In this document: in pieces, positions 18,237-33,428 of the stretch
How the letters are laid out: each line of letters opens with the position of its first letter
Numbering within the stretch: position 1 is the stretch's first letter
Assembly (NCBI GenBank): GCA_043798375.1
Contig: JAZDOS010000038.1
Span: 1 to 61,753, forward strand
DNA from: Candidatus Omnitrophota bacterium
GTDB taxonomy: Bacteria; Omnitrophota; Gorgyraeia; 2-01-FULL-45-10
DNA length: 61,753 nucleotides
Direction: 5' to 3'
Notes under the pieces: generated by a model
Database searches by the model: none
Told to the model about the DNA's origin: nothing
Seen by the model: only the letters and a program-made list of their open reading frames with translations
Translations under genes and position numbers: made by a program

Positions 18237-19063
18237 ACCCCGTTAGAAATATCTATTCATCAAAAGACTTGGAAAAAATTTCTAACGGGGTGAAGAAAAA
18301 AATAATTATAATATCAGCCGCCGTTATCGTATTTATTGCCGGAGCCGTTTTCTTTTATAAAATGGGCTATGTTGTCCCTGTTCTCATGTATCATTCGATA
18401 GATTATAACGACAGGGTTACAAAGCTGTCGCTATCTCCTGAAAGCTTCCGCCGCCAGATGGAATTTCTGCATAAGCGCCGGTATAACGTTCTGCCGCTCG
18501 AAAAAATCATTCCTTATATCGAGAAGAAAAAGAAGGTTCCGCCCGGAACGGTGGCGATCACTTTCGACGACGGTTACTACAATAACTATAAATACGCGTA
18601 TCCGGTTTTGAAAAAATATAATCTGCCGGCGACGATATTCGTGATCGTGAATAAGGTAGGCGCGCCCGGCTATCTTAACTGGAAAGAGATTAAGGAGATG
18701 TCGGATTCGGGCATAATCACCATAGGAAGCCATACGATGAACCATCTTTGGCTTCCGGATGTCGCGCCGCGGGTTCTGGAAAAAGAGGTTAAGGAGTCGA
18801 AAGAGATCCTCGAGAAAAGGCTGGGGAAGGATGTAAAGTTATTCTGTTATCCCATAGGGGCTCATGATAAAAAGGTGGAGAAGGCCGTTGAAGATGCGGG
18901 GTATGCGTGCGCGGTCGCGACAAATCCGGGAAGATTTAAGCCGACGGACGACATTTACGCCATCAAGAGGGTAAGGATCTCGCGCACATCCGACAATATG
19001 TTCGTATTCTGGGTCGAGACGAGCGGGATCTATACATGGATCAAAGAGCACAGAGATGAGTGA
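18233..19063 (+). CDS. Polysaccharide deacetylase (NodB/CE4)
   Basis: LMYH, TFDDG, GSHTMNH, YPIG; the first ~19 codons come from an inserted palindromic element. Confidence 0.88.
   Translation: MNPVRNIYSSKDLEKISNGVKKKIIIISAAVIVFIAGAVFFYKMGYVVPVLMYHSIDYNDRVTKLSLSPESFRRQMEFLHKRRYNVLPLEKIIPYIEKKKKVPPGTVAITFDDGYYNNYKYAYPVLKKYNLPATIFVIVNKVGAPGYLNWKEIKEMSDSGIITIGSHTMNHLWLPDVAPRVLEKEVKESKEILEKRLGKDVKLFCYPIGAHDKKVEKAVEDAGYACAVATNPGRFKPTDDIYAIKRVRISRTSDNMFVFWVETSGIYTWIKEHRDE
18238..18290. mobile_element. CCCCGTTAGA mini-element, copy 1 (53 bp)
   Basis: 13-bp TIR CCCCGTTAGAAAT/ATTTCTAACGGGG; TGAA duplicated at 18234-18237 and 18291-18294. Confidence 0.85.
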
Positions 19064-26905: not shown

Positions 26906-27205
26906 GTGAAAACCATAGATAAAGCTGTCGTCAAACACGTTGCGCACCTGGCGCGGTTATCTTTAAACGATAAGGAGCTCGAAGCCTATTCCGGCCAATT
27001 AGCGGCTATTCTATCTTATATAAGCAAATTAAATGAAGTAGATACAAATAATGTCCCCCCGACCAGCCATGCCATTTCGACGCTTAAGAACGTATTTAGA
27101 ATTGACGCCTTAAAACCTTCTCTTAGCGCGGATGATGCGCTGGCTAACGCGCCTCAAAAAGAGGAAGGCTTCTTCAAGGTTCCTCAGGTCATAGAAGGCA
27201 AGTAG
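26906..27205 (+). CDS. gatC: Asp/Glu-tRNA amidotransferase subunit C
   Basis: VAHLARL, NAP, FFKVPQVI; GTG start 26906 preferred. Confidence 0.92.
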   Translation: MKTIDKAVVKHVAHLARLSLNDKELEAYSGQLAAILSYISKLNEVDTNNVPPTSHAISTLKNVFRIDALKPSLSADDALANAPQKEEGFFKVPQVIEGK

Positions 27206-27210
27206 ATGAA

Positions 27211-27258
27211 CCCCGTTAGACCTTTTAATATGTCTGGCGGGGAGGAGGTCTAACGGGG
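27211..27258. mobile_element. CCCCGTTAGA mini-element, copy 2 (48 bp)
   Basis: 13-bp TIR CCCCGTTAGACCT/AGGTCTAACGGGG; TGAA duplicated at 27207-27210 and 27259-27262. Confidence 0.85.
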
Positions 27259-28688
27259 TGAAAAATCTTTATTCGCTTACAGCTCACGCCCTTAAGGAAT
27301 TGATGGAAAAGGATCGTCTTCAACCTTCCAAAATCTCCGAGGACGTCTTCGGGCGCATCAAGGCTGTCGACGGGCGGGTAAAGGCGGTCGTGCGCGTAAA
27401 CAGGACAAAATCTTCAGGGGTGAAGGCCGGCGGCAGACTCTCCGGCCTACCCGTCCTTCTAAAAGATAATATATGCGAGAAGGGCGAAGAGACGACATGC
27501 GCCTCAAAGATACTGGCAGGTTTTAAACCTCCTTATAGCGCGACGGTCGTCAAAAAGCTCGAAGAGGCCGGCGCCGTCATTATAGGAAAGGCCAACATGG
27601 ATGAGTTCGCCTTCGGCTCTTCGTGCGAGACTTCCTGTTACGGGCCTACGAAAAATCCGTGGGATCTCGGCCGGATCCCGGGCGGCTCGAGCGGAGGCGC
27701 CGCGGCGGCGGTCGCGGCGGACGAGACGATCCTGGCGCTCGGTTCGGATACGGGCGGCTCGATCAGGCAGCCGGCCGCGTTGTGCGGAGTGGTGGGCTTG
27801 AAGCCTACGTATGGCCGCGTGTCGCGCTACGGACTGATCGCGTTCGCGTCAAGCCTCGACCAGATCGGCCCGATAACGAAGGATGTGGAAGACGCCGCGC
27901 TCCTATTAGGCGTTATCGCGGGCCACGATGAGATGGATTCCACATCAGTCGATAAAACTGTCCCCGATTACACCAAATCATTGATTAAAGATGTGAAAGG
28001 CCTGCGTATCGGCGTCCCCAAAGAATATTTTATCAAGGGAATCGACAAGGAAGTTGAGGCGCATGTTTTAAAGGGCATAGATATTCTTAAAAGTTTAGGC
28101 GCGAAAGTTACCGAAATATCCTTGCCTCACACGGAATATGCCGTTAGCGCGTATTATATCGTGGGCCCCGCCGAGGCGAGCTCAAACCTCGCGAGATTTG
28201 ACGGCGTCCAGTACGGTTTCAGGGCCGAAGACCCTGATAATATGATAGACATGTATGTCAAGACGCGCTCGGAAGGATTCGGGGACGAGGCGAAGAGAAG
28301 GATACTCCTCGGGACATACTGCCTGTCGACGGGATACTACGACGCTTATTACCTGAAGGCTCAGAAGGTAAGGACCAGGATCAAGGAAGATTTCGAGAAC
28401 GCGTTCAATGCCTGCGACTGCATAATTACGCCGACGACGCCCGCGCCGGCATTCAAGATCGGCGAGAAGATGAACGACCCTTTAAGCATGTACCTGTCCG
28501 ATATATTTACGATACCGGCTAACCTGGCGGGTATCCCGGGAATGTCGGTGCCGTGCGGTTTTTCGAAAGACGGGCTTCCGATAGGATTGCAGATACTCGC
28601 GAAACCTTTTGATGAAGAGACGATATTCAGGGCCGCTTATACATTTGAGCAGGCGACCGATCACCACAGGAAGAAACCGGAATTATGA
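27258..28688 (+). CDS. gatA: Asp/Glu-tRNA amidotransferase subunit A
   Basis: [30 protein letters not shown]; the GTG start is formed at the element junction. Confidence 0.96.
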
Positions 28689-30160
28689 GCTATGAGACGG
28701 TAATAGGGCTTGAGGTCCACCTGCAGCTCGCGACGAATACAAAGGCCTTCTGCGGCTGTTCGACGAAATTCGGCGCCGAGCCGAATTCGCACACCTGTCC
28801 GGTCTGCCTCGGATTTCCGGGGGCGTTGCCGGTCCTGAATGAACAGGCGTTCCTCTTTTCTATCAAGGTCGCGCTGGCGCTGGATTGTAAGATCCAGGAC
28901 CTTATCAAGTTCGACAGAAAAAATTATTACTATCCGGACCTTCCGAAAAATTTCCAGATATCGCAATACGATATGCCGCTATCCTATAACGGTTCGCTGG
29001 AAATAACCGTAAAAGGCAAAACCAGGAAAAAGATCAGGATCAGGCGCGTTCATCTTGAAGAGGATGCGGGTAAGCTGGTCCATCCCGTTAGAAACTCCGT
29101 TTCTAACGGGATCCATCCCGAAGGCAAGCGCTCGAGCCTCGTCGATTACAATAGGGGCGGTATGCCGCTTCTCGAGATCGTTACGGAGCCGGATATCAAT
29201 TCGCCCGATGAGGCGTATGAATATCTTACGAAGCTGAAATCGATCCTCGGGTACCTCAGGGTTTCCGACTGCGACATGGAGAAAGGGTCGCTCAGATGCG
29301 ACGCCAATATATCGATCAGGCCCGGGGTGTCCGGTAAGCTCGGTACGAAGGTCGAACTCAAGAACATGAATACATTCAAAGGCGTCCGCTCGGCCCTTGA
29401 GCATGAAGTAAACCGGCAGGAATCGATCCTTGAGGGCAAAGGCGAAATTGCGCAGGAGACACGGCTCTGGAACGCCGAGAAAGAGATCACGACGTCGATG
29501 CGCACCAAAGAAGAAGCCGAGGACTACAGGTATTTCCCTGAGCCCGATCTCGTGCCGTTTATAGTCGATAAGGATTTGATCGGGCGCGTAAAAGAAAGCC
29601 TCCCCGAACTTCCCGAGGCAAAATTAAACAGATTCGTAAAGGATTTCGGGCTTTCGGAATACGACGCCAATGTCCTGACAAGCCAGATAGACATAGCCGA
29701 TTATTTCGAAGAATGCGCCGGGCTCTATCCGAACAGAAAAACCATATCCAACTGGGTCACCGGCGAGATTTTGGCGGTATTGAACGATAAATTTATCGGA
29801 ATCAGGGACATGAAGCTCCCGCCGCGCGGCCTTGCGGAGCTGTTGAAGATGATCGATGAAGGCGCCATAAGCGGGAAGATGGCAAAGGCTATCTTCGCCG
29901 AAGCGGTCGAGACCGGCGCCGGCCCGAAAGAGATCGCCGAAAAGCGCGGCCTTTCCCAGATAAGCGACCGGAAACTGATAGAGGAGATGGTGGAAGCGGT
30001 CATCAGGAGCCAGGCGAAGACCGTCAACGATTACAGGTCGGGTAAATCGAACGCGCTCGCGTTTCTGATCGGCCAGATAATGAAAGAGTCGCGAGGGAAA
30101 GCGAATCCGGCGCTCGTCAACGAAATCCTTAAGAGTAAACTGGAGGGCGGACAAATTTGA
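28685..30160 (+). CDS. gatB: Asp/Glu-tRNA amidotransferase subunit B
   Basis: [39 protein letters not shown]. Confidence 0.96.
29083..29111. mobile_element. CCCGTTAGA mini-element, copy 3 (29 bp, in frame in gatB)
   Basis: TCCCGTTAGAAAC-TCC-GTTTCTAACGGGA; TCCA duplicated at 29079-29082 and 29112-29115. Confidence 0.85.
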
Positions 30161-31464
30161 AACTGAATGACAGGAGAACGAAAGTTTTTATCTTTGCCGC
30201 TCTTCTTGTTCTTGTCTCGCCGCTCGCATTAAGCGGCGGCTCCGATAACACTAAGGACAAAAACGTTAAAGTAAAAACAAAAGAGAACCTTTACGGGCAG
30301 CTCGAATTGTTTGCCGACGCGGTAAGCCTCGTAAAGAGCGACTACGTCGATGAAGTCGAATCGAAGAAACTGATGTACGGCGCGATGAATGGAATGCTTT
30401 CGTCGCTCGATGATTACAGCGCGTTCATGGAGCCGGACGAGTTCAAAGAGATAAAAGAGGAGGCAAAAGGCGAATTCGGCGGGATCGGCATCGAAATCTC
30501 GTATAAAGACGGGATTCCGGCCGTGATCACCCCTATAGTCGGCACGCCCGCGGAAAGAGCCGGCATACAGCCCGGCGACAGGATCGTCAAGATCGACGGA
30601 AAGTCCACGAGGGATATCGCGTTGAATGATGCCGTTAAAATTCTTCGCGGTCCTCCCGGCACATCGGTAACGATCACCGTGTGGAGGGAGAAGGACCAGT
30701 TGGTGCTCGACATACCGATAAGACGCGCTATGATAAAGATACGCAGCATAAGGAAAGCAGAGTTTATCGAAGATAAGATCGGATATATAAAACTCGTCGA
30801 GTTTCAGGAAAATACGCCGCGCGACCTCGAAGAGGCGTTGAAGAAACTCGAATCCCGGGGCATGACGGCGCTCATACTCGACCTGCGGTATAATCCGGGC
30901 GGGCTGCTCGACGTTGCGGTGGACGTTGCCGAAAAATTTATACCGAAGGATAAAATCATCGTCTCGCTGAAGTCGCGGAACGCCGAACAGAACGCGGTCT
31001 TTAAGTCGAGCGGCAAGCTGTGTCACCCCGATTATCCGCTCGTGGTGATGGTGAACGAAGGTTCCGCGAGCGCTTCCGAGATCGTGGCCGGCGCGATCCA
31101 GGATAATTCGCGCGGGATAGTGCTTGGCCGGAAGACGTTCGGCAAGGCGTCGGTCCAATCGGTAATCCCCATGAAGGATGGTTCGGCGCTCCGGCTTACC
31201 TCGGCGTTGTATTATACGCCGAGCGGCAAACTGATACGAAGCCTGGGCATATCGCCCGATGTTGTGGTCGAGAGGGAAAATCTCACGGCGAAGAAGAAGG
31301 CCGGGCCGGAAGAAATTTTCGAAAAAGCGGAAAAGAACCGGAAGGGCGCGGTAAAAAGAGAGGAAGATCTCTCGGATGAAAAAGACGAAAGGGATAACCA
31401 GCTCGAGATGGCGGTCAATCTGATAAAAGCGATGAGTATCTATAAGTCGAAGGAATTGCGATGA
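30157..31464 (+). CDS. ctpA: Carboxy-terminal processing protease (S41, CtpA-like)
   Basis: PDZ GGIGI, DLRYNPGG, SASASEI, TFGKASVQ. Confidence 0.9.
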   Translation: MKLNDRRTKVFIFAALLVLVSPLALSGGSDNTKDKNVKVKTKENLYGQLELFADAVSLVKSDYVDEVESKKLMYGAMNGMLSSLDDYSAFMEPDEFKEIKEEAKGEFGGIGIEISYKDGIPAVITPIVGTPAERAGIQPGDRIVKIDGKSTRDIALNDAVKILRGPPGTSVTITVWREKDQLVLDIPIRRAMIKIRSIRKAEFIEDKIGYIKLVEFQENTPRDLEEALKKLESRGMTALILDLRYNPGGLLDVAVDVAEKFIPKDKIIVSLKSRNAEQNAVFKSSGKLCHPDYPLVVMVNEGSASASEIVAGAIQDNSRGIVLGRKTFGKASVQSVIPMKDGSALRLTSALYYTPSGKLIRSLGISPDVVVERENLTAKKKAGPEEIFEKAEKNRKGAVKREEDLSDEKDERDNQLEMAVNLIKAMSIYKSKELR

Positions 31465-31465
31465 A

Positions 31466-31564
31466 CCCCGTTAGACCTTTTGATAAATATATTCTTTATA
31501 GGTATAAAAGGTATTATATATGAACATATACTTTAACCATATAATAAAGAGGGGTCTAACGGGG
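31466..31564. mobile_element. CCCCGTTAGA mini-element, copy 4 (99 bp, AT-rich interior)
   Basis: 12-bp TIR CCCCGTTAGACC/GGTCTAACGGGG; TGAA duplicated at 31462-31465 and 31565-31568. Confidence 0.85.
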
Positions 31565-32379
31565 TGAAGCCCAGGATAATTATAGCAGCCGTTTCGATAT
31601 TGGGCGTAATTTTAATCGCCGGGCTTTTTTTTTGGCTCGGCCGGGAAACGCGGCGGCCGCCGAAAATAGCCGAAAAGAAAGCCGCAAAAGTAACGGCGCC
31701 TGTACCTAAGGCCGCGAAACGCGCGAAGGTAGCGATAGTGATGGACGATTTCGGGTACAACATGAATGATCTCGATACGCTATTTTCCATCAATGAGCCG
31801 ATAACGCTGTCGATACTGCCCAGCCTGAGATACTCGAAGACGATCGCGGAATATGCCCGCGGCCGCGGTTACGAGGTTATCCTGCACCTTCCTCTTGAGC
31901 CGCACAGAAAAGATGTGAAAGAAGAGGCCGATACGATCAGATCCGGGATGGCCGATACCGAGATCGTCTCAAGGCTCGCGAAAGAGATTGAGAGTGTGCC
32001 GGGGGCAAGCGGCGTCTCCAACCACATGGGTTCGAAATCTACGGAAGATAAAGAGCTGATGGCGGCCATATTCAGGTATCTGAAGAACCGCCGCCTCTAT
32101 TTTTTTGACAGCCTGACCTCGGAAAAATCCGTATGCCGGGAAACTGCCGAAGCGGCCGGACTGAAATATGCCAGACGGGATATATTTCTGGATAATACGG
32201 ACAGGCGCGAATACATCGAGAAACAGCTTGCGGCTCTCAAAAGGATGGCTCTTAGAAAAGGCCGCGCCATAGCGGTCTGCCATGACAAAAAATTCACGAT
32301 AGCGGCGCTCGCGAAAATGATGCCTCAGATGGCGAAAGACGGCATCGAATTCGTAACGCTTTCGGATATGGTGCGGTGA
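31564..32379 (+). CDS. Divergent polysaccharide deacetylase (YibQ-like)
   Basis: AIVMDDFG, HLPLEP, NHMGS, FFDSLT, RDIFLD; follows the S41 protease. Confidence 0.88.
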   Translation: MKPRIIIAAVSILGVILIAGLFFWLGRETRRPPKIAEKKAAKVTAPVPKAAKRAKVAIVMDDFGYNMNDLDTLFSINEPITLSILPSLRYSKTIAEYARGRGYEVILHLPLEPHRKDVKEEADTIRSGMADTEIVSRLAKEIESVPGASGVSNHMGSKSTEDKELMAAIFRYLKNRRLYFFDSLTSEKSVCRETAEAAGLKYARRDIFLDNTDRREYIEKQLAALKRMALRKGRAIAVCHDKKFTIAALAKMMPQMAKDGIEFVTLSDMVR

Positions 32380-33428
32380 TGCTTACGCTCGGCATAGAGA
32401 CATCCTGCGACGAGACGAGCGTCTCGGTTACCAGGGGCGTGAAAGTTCTTTCGAATATCGTGACCTCGAGCGTCCATCTTCACAAGAAGTATGGCGGCGT
32501 GGTGCCTGAGATAGCGTCGAGATACCACGTCGAATTTATAATAGAGGTGCTTAAGGCGGCGTTAAAGAGTTCGAAAAAAGATTTGGACGATATGAAGCTC
32601 GTGGCAGTCACGAACGGCCCGGGATTGGTAGGCGCGCTTCTTGTCGGCATATCTCTGGCAAAATCGATCAGCTATAGCCTGGGGCTTCCCATTATAGGCG
32701 TCAATCATATACTGGCGCATCTTTACAGCTCGTTTCTGAACCCCGTTAGAAAAAAGTTTTCTAACGGGGTGAACGAAAGCGATAAACCGAAGTTTCCTTT
32801 TGTGGGGCTCGTGGTTTCCGGCGGGCACACGGCTTTATTTCACTGCGAAAGGGTGGGAAGAGAGAGGCTTCTCGGCCAGACGCAGGACGACGCCGTGGGC
32901 GAGGCGTACGATAAGGTCGCCAAACTCTTAGGGCTCGGGTATCCGGGCGGGCCGGTAATCGAGAAAATGGCAAGGCAGGCGAAGGGATTAAATAAGATAA
33001 ATTTCCCGAAAAGCTACCTCGGAAAAGATTCGCTCGATTTCAGTTTCAGCGGAATCAAGACGGCGGTTCTTTATTATGTAAATAAATTACGCATTACGCA
33101 TTACGCATTACGCATTACGGATATTGCCGACATCTGCCGCGCGTTCCAGGAAGCCGCCCTCGATGTCCTGGTCGAAAAGGCGATATTGGCCGGCCGGATC
33201 ACGGATTGTTCCAGGATAGTGGCGGGCGGAGGTGTTGCCGCGAACACCAGGCTCAGGGAGAAGCTCGGGGCGGCATGCGAATTTTCTTCTATGAATTTAC
33301 ATTTTCCTGAGTTAAAATACTGTCTGGACAATGCCGCGATGGTGGGAGCGCTTGGAGAAGAGCTTTACAGGCTTGGCCTTAAGTCGGACTTGTATTTAAG
33401 CGCCGAGCCAAATCTTAACATAAGTTAA
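32379..33428 (+). CDS. tsaD: tRNA N6-threonylcarbamoyltransferase
   Basis: GIETSCDET, GGVVPEIASR, HILAH, VSGGHT, DDAVGEAYDK, FSFSGIKT, DNAAM. Confidence 0.96.
   Translation: MLTLGIETSCDETSVSVTRGVKVLSNIVTSSVHLHKKYGGVVPEIASRYHVEFIIEVLKAALKSSKKDLDDMKLVAVTNGPGLVGALLVGISLAKSISYSLGLPIIGVNHILAHLYSSFLNPVRKKFSNGVNESDKPKFPFVGLVVSGGHTALFHCERVGRERLLGQTQDDAVGEAYDKVAKLLGLGYPGGPVIEKMARQAKGLNKINFPKSYLGKDSLDFSFSGIKTAVLYYVNKLRITHYALRITDIADICRAFQEAALDVLVEKAILAGRITDCSRIVAGGGVAANTRLREKLGAACEFSSMNLHFPELKYCLDNAAMVGALGEELYRLGLKSDLYLSAEPNLNIS
32741..32769. mobile_element. CCCCGTTAGA mini-element, copy 5 (29 bp, in frame in tsaD)
   Basis: CCCCGTTAGAAAA-AAG-TTTTCTAACGGGG; TGAA duplicated at 32737-32740 and 32770-32773. 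Confidence 0.88.
33086..33120. repeat. In-frame heptamer tract (ATTACGC)4 ATTACGG in tsaD
   Basis: Read directly; encodes LRITHYALRIT. Confidence 0.9.

Follow-up and report, generated by a model that had tools for sequence, protein, structure and literature searches.

Mobile repeats that lie at a start codon are known from the mycobacterial interspersed repetitive unit (MIRU), in which an internal open reading frame (ORF) is coupled to the downstream gene, an arrangement thought to limit the effect of the repeat on expression (Brown & Wade 2025, PMC12548453, in the accessible part of that text). A comparable situation is encountered in the DNA analysed here (61,753 nucleotides of a Candidatus Omnitrophota bacterium, assembly GCA_043798375.1, contig JAZDOS010000038.1; the whole stretch is referred to as the window), where a 48-bp hairpin element resembling transposable elements of the miniature inverted-repeat type (MITEs) has entered the start codon of gatA in the gatCAB operon. 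The old start codon now opens a 15-codon upstream ORF (uORF) that ends 4 nt before a rebuilt GTG, and gatA is probably translated by a relay of ribosomes from gatC through this uORF. The likeness to MIRU lies in this functional idea and does not amount to membership. MIRUs are direct, often tandem units of 40-100 bp in mycobacterial operon junctions, not known to have terminal inverted repeats or such a hairpin and without a described target duplication, whereas the gatA element is a single inverted-repeat hairpin in a host from another phylum. MIRU couples by an overlap of -4 nt, as given in the accessible text on it, while the gatA element rebuilds the start codon from its last base and the target duplication and imports a Shine-Dalgarno (SD) sequence. 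Furthermore, MIRU has no linked enzyme, whereas the Omnitrophota family shares its ends with a GIY-YIG gene. The primary account of MIRU is reportedly that of Supply and colleagues from 1997.

In Neisseria, the Ssn/SRM arrangement (NTS-ssnA-NTS) consists of a small GIY-YIG gene bracketed by hairpin repeats, which its authors liken to an insertion sequence (Chenal et al. 2025, PMC11893778, accessible in part). Its nuclease cleaves single-stranded DNA site-specifically beside the hairpin. The Omnitrophota family likewise combines short multi-copy hairpins with a small single-domain GIY-YIG gene that is flanked on both sides (C23:1300-1578 of the host genome), but the element is unrelated to the NTS consensus and lacks the dRS3-type ATTCCC-N8-GGGAAT, of which the host genome holds 2 sites. 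The accessible text on Ssn/SRM does not contain the terms 'start codon', 'duplication' or 'MITE', and its supplements could list such repeats. Neisseria REP2 and Borrelia IR repeats are covered by the review of Delihas (2011, PMC3184786), in the accessible part of which REP2 brings a ribosome binding site (RBS) and an ATG, and also a promoter and a 5' untranslated region. REP2 differs from the gatA element in having no terminal inverted repeats and in not being described, in that part of the review, as hitting an existing start codon or making a target duplication. Palindromic elements of Rickettsia insert in frame into genes (Ogata 2000, cited in the same part of PMC3184786), and the 29-bp copies of the Omnitrophota family, in gatB and elsewhere, resemble them in their behaviour.

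The family shares with bacterial MITEs such as Correia/NEMIS and Nezha its short length, inverted ends, target duplication, high copy number and lack of a transposase gene. Known MITEs of this kind are mostly intergenic and have DDE-transposase parents, whereas the only gene found between ends of the Omnitrophota family is a GIY-YIG nuclease; published MITEs that prefer and rebuild start codons were not found in the literature that was searched. REP/REPIN elements are small GC-rich palindromes at gene boundaries that occur in many copies, are mobilised by RAYT (Y1) and make no target duplication. Multi-copy palindromes at gene boundaries are common to both, but the Omnitrophota family has a 4-bp duplication and the Y1_Tnp genes are not flanked by its ends. 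Neither the literature covered by full-text searches nor the accessible text of a 2026 Omnitrophota genome preprint, consulted by term look-up, describes a hairpin-ended, duplication-making family that rebuilds a start codon from its terminal base and the duplication, and neither describes a fixed-orientation SD or ends shared with a GIY-YIG gene for such a family. The principle is already in print with MIRU and is not unprecedented, while the start-rebuilding traits of the family were not found described.

Insertion of the element at the gatA start codon

A preliminary description, made from the sequence of the window, had reported a 52-nt out-of-frame addition at the gatA start, and its coordinates hold: the 52 additional nucleotides are the 48-nt element plus one copy of TGAA (Table 1). 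The left end CCCCGTTAGACC (27211-27222) and the right end GGTCTAACGGGG (27247-27258) are perfect 12-nt inverted repeats around an interior of 24 nt. Once the A/T pair of the duplication is counted, the arms extend to the perfect 13 bp returned by a pattern search (ACCCCGTTAGACC, 27210-27222; GGTCTAACGGGGT, 27247-27259), and the predicted stem reaches about 17 bp when G-U pairs are allowed. The stem takes in the final two G of the RBS and, of the GTG, its first two bases. The earlier account had placed the end of the RBS in the 13-bp stem correctly, while its placing of the first base of the GTG there falls short by one base. Allowing up to 2 mismatches, the window contains 10 matches to the 13-mer where 0.96 would be expected, a number reached in none of 100 shuffles. 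The region 27180-27300 folds with -40.1 kcal/mol (z = -2.9), which none of 200 shuffles equalled, and the hairpin alone with -26.9 kcal/mol (27211-27258) or -29.7 kcal/mol (27206-27262). Sister copies of the gatA element on the contigs C43 and C49 of the host genome are 97% and 93% identical to it, respectively.

With the 48 nt and one TGAA taken out, the sequence reads ATG-AAA-AAT-CTT (MKNLY) again, to be compared with MENLY or MKELY in relatives. This arrangement is explained by the entry of a 48-bp non-autonomous hairpin transposon into the TGAA of an ancestral ATG-AAA start. The last base of the element is a G and the first two of the duplication are TG, so that GTG-AAA stands at the junction and GatA retains its full sequence. 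The new GTG preserves the conserved N-terminus of GatA, whose residues 1-15 are conserved in relatives; over residues 1-476, GatA is 88% identical to that of a same-genus genome (G001). The element has also supplied a GGAGG 9 nt 5' of the start: the RBS GGAGGAGG that had been noted before lies inside the inserted DNA, and its second GGAGG ends 9 nt 5' of GTG 27258-27260, which is the codon likely to be used in vivo. The old RBS and ATG persist and head a 15-codon ORF that runs through the hairpin, from the 5' arm over the loop into the 3' arm. This uORF, opened by the old ATG and closed by a stop ending at 27253 as previously described, is confirmed from the sequence; its TAA lies in the right inverted repeat 4 nt 5' of the GTG, with the stop beginning 7 nt before it.

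The junction was compared across relatives. Among 31 genomes including that of the host, 29 gave a GatA match, and the junction was read in 24 relatives' loci. The palindrome is absent from the gatC|gatA junction in all 25 relatives' gatA loci, one of which holds the 8-nt core of the family about 640 nt upstream of gatA. Palindrome-free relatives use neither this GTG nor this RBS, in agreement with the earlier proposal that both are new. Instead, their gatA starts with an ATG located at the gatC stop or immediately past it, preceded by a GAAGG-type RBS (GAAGG or GAGGG) within gatC, and the empty site ATG-RAA-AAT is present among them. In the same-genus genome G001 the gatC TAG stands directly before the gatA ATG (...ATAGAAGGTAAGTAG|ATGGAAAATCTTTATTCGCTTACAGCC, also written ...GAAGGTAAGTAG|ATGGAAAATCTTTATTCG and TAG|ATGGAAAATCTT), and the corresponding junction of the window reads ...ATAGAAGGCAAGTAG|ATGAA[48 nt]TGAAAAATCTTTATTCGCTTACAGCT. 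Uninterrupted starts were also found in relatives for three more start-site copies of the host genome (C49:25946, C26:14241 and C43:9799), so that the sites checked, including gatA, are empty in relatives in 4/4 cases; an example is ...GGTACAGATGAACTATTTTGCC in G001 against ...GGTATAGATGAA[50 nt]TGAACTATTTTGCC in the host genome. In a scan of metagenome GatA sequences, the element was found at the gatA start in 0/80 loci, which share at most 78% identity and include no near-identical strain by which the insertion could be dated. Sequencing runs added nothing here, as two DNA runs alone contained the sequence, with 4% of the sampled words, and no RNA run was listed. Judged by this comparison of junctions, the 52-nt addition is an insertion.

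The gene that was hit is needed by the host. Its assembly (G000), a metagenome-assembled genome (MAG) of 1.46 Mb in 58 contigs and 95% complete, holds a single gatA match, no match to glutaminyl-tRNA synthetase (GlnRS) and no match to asparaginyl-tRNA synthetase (AsnRS) above the cut-off. The case shows that a host can survive with mobile DNA seated in the start codon of a gene that is essential and present once. The glnS model has zero matches in the host genome at E <= 0.001, yet it has matches in all 14 control genomes; these are presumably glutamyl-tRNA synthetase (GluRS), and the GluRS of the host may be divergent or encoded on an unassembled piece.

A different palindromic insert (TCCTTCGGC...GTCGAAGGA) was seen in the gatC-gatA locus of another relative (L012, genome G009), about 50 nt before the gatC stop, apparently in frame and with a repeat of ATAGAA on both sides. 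It would be another hairpin family striking the gatC-gatA operon.

A MITE-like family on gene starts

Short inverted-repeat ends, a 4-bp duplication, dispersed copies and empty sites place the insertion in a MITE-like family. Its ends read YCCCGTTAGA...TCTAACGGGR with a 4-bp target duplication, and the core CCCCGTTAG occurs 62 times in the host assembly. A paired search ([CT]CCCGTTAGA ... TCTAACGGG[GA], spacing 22-400 bp) gave 59 inverted-repeat pairs of 28-279 bp, 41 of which are enclosed by a perfect 4-bp duplication, where chance would give 1 in 256 per pair. TGAA/TTCA and TGAG/CTCA lead among the duplications with 13 each, followed by TAAA/TTTA with 5. Targeting of stop codons was considered for the TAAA/TTTA type and rejected, as just 3/11 copies follow an open frame of at least 38 codons.

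A copy lies exactly on the start of 21 distinct genes of the host genome, with ORFs of 138-573 aa behind. In these cases the old ATG or GTG is followed by the TGAR duplication, the element and a start codon formed from the last base of the element and TG. Ends in ...GGGG rebuild GTG, and a variant ending in ...GGGA rebuilds ATG. In 14 of the 23 start-site copies of the host genome, GGAGG or AGGAG stands 9-12 nt ahead of the rebuilt start; another 6 copies carry a 4-mer SD and 3 carry none. These copies bear on the earlier notion of a gene that rescued itself with a new RBS and GTG: insertion and rebuilt start stand, but the rescue did not arise at gatA. It is a built-in trait of the family, since a terminal G or A together with the TGAR duplication rebuilds GTG or ATG wherever the element lands on ATGAR.

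For an independent and unbiased set, other genomes, one per species, were scanned with the fixed ends only (CCCGTTAGACC-N12-42-GGTCTAACGGG), which covers the SD-bearing subfamily. This gave 97 loci with 106 elements, of which 72 occupy a start codon that is followed by 60 or more open codons. The 80 named rows among the 97 loci are nearly all Omnitrophota MAGs, with three labelled Planctomycetia and one Methylobacter. Start-site copies make up 44/58 elements in one heavily colonised MAG, 17/29 in 15 other named assemblies and 11/19 in the other rows. Among relatives the distribution is patchy: the short-element pattern is present in 11/31 genomes and was not found in the two genomes of the same genus (82% and 89% complete). 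For genome annotation, such insertions shift the called starts and produce frameshift calls or false N-terminal extensions; the genes affected in the host genome are gatA, gatB and at least 20 others.

Some copies are compound. At two loci of the host genome (G000:C49:82513-82706 and C23:24510-24644), a 29-bp mini-hairpin with a TTAA duplication is nested within a 135-bp element, and two elements stand in tandem at one gene start with a common CTCA/TGAG copy. Several of the 34 'non-start' elements in other genomes are the upstream partner of a tandem pair at a start site. In four loci from other Omnitrophota assemblies (L072, L091, L141 and L146), identical 49-bp copies with a TTTA duplication occur in a larger repeated context rich in 'CATTACAC'; these look like parts of a larger repeat and not like separate insertions.

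Translation of gatA

The gatC TAG (27203-27205) directly abuts the old gatA ATG (27206-27208) with 0 nt between them. In the mRNA, a hairpin of -27 to -30 kcal/mol would bury the SD in its 3' part, and with it the first and second base of the GTG. Ribosomes ending gatC would restart on the uORF and melt the hairpin, after which they could either restart at the GTG or leave the SD exposed to a new 30S subunit. Given insertion into TGAA and a rebuilt GTG, the account that we favour, and hold to be the probable one, is that gatA is translated by this relay from gatC to the uORF to gatA. The calculated opening costs argue in its favour, as the hairpin hides the new start. Opening the region from the new SD to +12 costs 17.2 kcal/mol, which falls to 9.5 kcal/mol with the 5' arm (27206-27240) held single-stranded; from the old RBS to +12 the cost is 18.7 kcal/mol, against 6.3 kcal/mol in the in-silico empty site. 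Both starts would thus be hard to reach for a free 30S subunit, while a ribosome at the gatC TAG is already on the mRNA beside the old ATG. Coupling is efficient at spacings including the 0 nt found between gatC and the uORF and the +4 nt between the uORF and gatA (Brown & Wade 2025, PMC12548453, in its accessible part). On the folding model, coupling through the 15-codon uORF is plausible, and translation of the uORF may be required for that of gatA. Ribosome bypassing of the type known from T4 gene 60 (a gap of about 50 nt with repeated flanks) was considered and is unnecessary, as the GTG is a start codon.

The design of the element at other gene starts bears on the same question. Wherever a copy sits on ATGAR, its left end contains no stop in the frame of the old ATG (ATG AAC CCC GTT AGA), so that the old ATG takes ribosomes at least 5 codons into the 5' arm, and the right end resolves the three frames as TAA, as an overlapping TGA or as an in-frame fusion. 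The uORF ends with the TAA of the right end in 9/23 start-site copies of the host genome and 14/72 of other genomes, with an overlapping (A/G)TGA in 2/23 and 17/72, by in-frame fusion to the gene in 3/23 and 10/72, and at an earlier stop in 9/23 and 31/72. As a control, the frame of the relay was compared with the other frames and with the flipped element, counting interior stops only, because the control frames hold a built-in TGA (of ATGA) or TAG (of CCCCGTTAG). In the host genome the old-ATG frame is open in 15/23 copies against 3-8 in the controls; for elements of at least 90 nt the figures are 7/12 against 0-3, in copies that come from few related subfamilies. This test is equivocal, and only the long subfamilies of the host genome appear selected for a frame that reads through.

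Three observations speak against the relay. An opening cost of 9.5 kcal/mol persists with the 5' arm held open. Short elements outside the host genome keep the old-ATG frame open in 42/72 cases against 19-48 in five controls, which is no enrichment. Finally, the early uORF stops just listed and the three host copies that lack an SD mean that a full relay is not obligatory for the family.

Alternatively, the same insertion and the same GTG could serve an independent initiation of gatA, in which the GGAGG recruits 30S subunits during breathing of the hairpin or co-transcriptionally and the uORF is incidental. The SD is optimally spaced and faces the gene, the stronger SD being gene-proximal in 65 of the 72 start sites of other genomes, distal in 0 and equal in 7, as selection for such initiation would give, and the missing frame enrichment in short elements and the early uORF stops point in the same direction. 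The 17.2 kcal/mol needed from the SD to +12, however, far exceeds the 6.3 kcal/mol calculated for the ancestral site as reconstructed, every TGAA copy is built such that the start codon has its first two bases paired, and ribosomes reach the old ATG anyway, as it lies 0 nt past the gatC stop. We therefore consider independent initiation doubtful, though the most serious competitor of the relay.

It is improbable that the insertion is simply recent and mildly harmful, with gatA under-expressed, or truncated from ATG 27303 (Met16, with AAGGA before it), and the damage tolerated. Perfect arms (13/13), a perfect duplication and a 97%-identical sister do indicate a young insertion that has perhaps not yet been judged by selection, and opening of both start regions has become costly. 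Yet gatA is single-copy with no GlnRS or AsnRS found as a replacement of the pathway, residues 1-15 are conserved across relatives, and the layout is tolerated at 21 gene starts of the host genome and 72 elsewhere. Even less probable is a hairpin co-opted by the host to regulate the gatC:gatA ratio (for example by sensing temperature, by being a site for RNase III or by binding a protein), since, although the structure is stable, sits precisely at the intercistronic junction and belongs to a family abundant at gene starts, its absence from 25 relatives' junctions and 80 metagenome gatA starts argues against a regulatory feature conserved in gatCAB, Rfam 15 gives no family at threshold (best match mir-4899, 29.7 bits against 85), a terminator and promoter scan returned nothing of note, with no terminator-like site at the gatA element, and a stem of about 17 bp falls short of the roughly 20 bp typical of RNase III substrates.

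Read as a relay, the locus provides a concrete example from nature on which either model of translational coupling, by RNA unfolding or by reinitiation, can be tested, and is of relevance to the fields of mobile DNA and of translation initiation. If the cassette works as read here, it would represent a compact natural part, about 50 nt long, that brings ribosomes past a strong hairpin and onto a defined start.

Two long variants of the host genome lack an SD (G000:C49:17542-17661 and C56:20380-20482) and show by eye an apparent internal ATG with AAAGG or AGG upstream. The frame of this ATG seems to continue across the right end and to join the rebuilt start in phase, which, if true, would be a third mode of rescue, by N-terminal extension.

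Association with start codons and a candidate mobilising enzyme

The association of the family with start codons goes beyond chance. Among host copies with a TGAA or TGAG duplication, 20/26 occupy a start codon and precede an ORF of 100 aa or more, in 19 distinct genes. With the same permissiveness at all TGAR sites, intergenic or at a start codon, the expected share at starts would be 11.6% (binomial tail 2e-14), on an ORF heuristic that called 1285 genes, 85.6% coding sequence, 393 NTGAR gene starts and 2982 intergenic TGAR sites. The target itself carries no extra DNA signal, as 60 reconstructed start-site targets compared with the 393 NTGAR starts gave at most 0.30 bits at any position. 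Among the youngest copies, with an interior at least 95% identical to another copy, 11/17 are at starts, and the remaining 6/17 comprise 2 tandem partners at a start and 4 parts of a larger repeat, a distribution that hints at a true preference for starts, in small numbers. Biased retention is a possible source of the excess as well, since copies on start codons need near-precise excision, whereas intergenic copies are freely deleted.

As to the enzyme, one member of the family in the host genome (C23:1300-1578, 279 bp) has identical CCCCGTTAGA ends and encodes an 86-aa GIY-YIG protein on the minus strand. Its PF01541 domain scores 64.1 bits against a cut-off of 22.6 (E = 1.5e-17) and lies between CCCCGTTAGAGAC and GTCTCTAACGGGG. 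The best solved relatives are UPF0213 proteins (1zg2, E = 8.8e-8), and in NCBIfam there is a sub-threshold group I intron endonuclease match only. This GIY-YIG nuclease, which is not a recognised transposase, is the sole gene found between family ends in the 58-contig MAG, and may be what mobilises the family; if so, it would be an unusual mobilising enzyme, linked to a MITE-like family that makes duplications. The second small GIY-YIG gene of the host genome (C8) has no family ends. Y1 and DDE transposases were considered as parents and rejected: the three Y1_Tnp and two DDE transposase genes of the host genome have no convincing family ends within 2 kb, one Y1_Tnp gene having two isolated one-mismatch 9-mers of the ends nearby. 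The CCC ends and the 4-bp duplication would fit an IS1380/piggyBac-like parent, a type that was examined with PF01609 only. Among 26 small GIY-YIG loci of relatives, three more lie between inverted repeats spaced 280-304 bp, whose ends are of other CCCC types; such units were counted in 3 relatives and 4/26 loci examined. The last codons and the stop of the C23 gene are formed by the inverted repeat and its flank, and the downstream gene begins 4 nt after.

Taken further, the family could be a new kind of transposon that homes to start sites and remains silent there, mobilised by the GIY-YIG nuclease, in place of a DDE or tyrosine enzyme, into the TGAR of ATGAR and bringing a portable initiation cassette made of an SD, a terminal base that completes the start codon, a stop-free left end and a right end that resolves three frames. 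We put this forward tentatively, as a possibility rated somewhat below an even chance. Several points limit the start association and the mobilising role of the nuclease: the 11.6% expectation rests on crude gene calls from an ORF heuristic and on a rough model, copies within one genome or subfamily are not independent, the copy with the GIY-YIG gene has no clean duplication (TTTA against CTAT), and small GIY-YIG genes occur in 28/31 genomes irrespective of whether the family was detected, which makes their presence uninformative. If the homing proposal were true, the family could colonise essential genes in streamlined genomes with almost no intergenic space.

Gene neighbourhood and further copies in the window

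The features of the gatCAB region and the five family copies of the window are collected in Table 1. The likely GTG start of gatC has GGAAGG 5 nt 5' of it, the earliest start in that ORF being TTG 26888. At the other end, the gatA stop and the gatB ATG share ATGA at 28685-28688.

Table 1 Features of the gatCAB region and copies of the MITE-like family, in positions of the window
Feature	Position	Strand	Remarks
gatC	26906..27205	+	likely GTG start; TAG 27203-27205; NCBIfam TIGR00135, 100.1 bits (cut-off 47.1)
Ancestral gatA RBS GAAGG	27194..27198	+	within the end of gatC, 7 nt 5' of the old ATG
uORF of the proposed relay, 15 codons	27206..27253	+	old gatA ATG and 14 codons; TAA 27251-27253
Target-site duplication, left TGAA	27207..27210	+	TG is part of the old ATG
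48-bp MITE-like hairpin element	27211..27258	+	left end, 24-nt interior, right end; sister copies known
Element-borne SD GGAGGAGG	27241..27248	+	3' part inside the stem
gatA, 476 aa	27258..28688	+	rebuilt GTG; TIGR00132, 631.4 bits (cut-off 481.1)
Target-site duplication, right TGAA	27259..27262	+	gives GTG-AA with the last G of the element
Sister copy, 53 bp, TGAA duplication	18238..18290	+	on the start codon of a 257-aa ORF
gatB copy, 29-bp mini-hairpin TCCCGTTAGAAAC..GTTTCTAACGGGA	29083..29111	+	TCCA duplication 29079-29082 and 29112-29115
Sister copy, 99 bp, TGAA duplication	31466..31564	+	in an ATGA stop/start overlap (window 31461-31568)
Sister copy, 29-bp mini-hairpin, TGAA duplication	32741..32769	+	after CTGAA, off a start codon; the added 33 nt are frame-neutral

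The gatCAB operon bears two insertions, as the copy in gatB lies in frame and adds 11 residues, a stretch that is missing from GatB in 23/23 relatives' loci. The 53-bp copy added 57 nt in frame to its gene, giving either a 19-aa N-terminal extension or a restart at GTG 18290. At the 99-bp copy, the left duplication still holds the TGA of the upstream 435-aa ORF (30157-31464), and GTG 31564 serves as the new start of the downstream 271-aa ORF.

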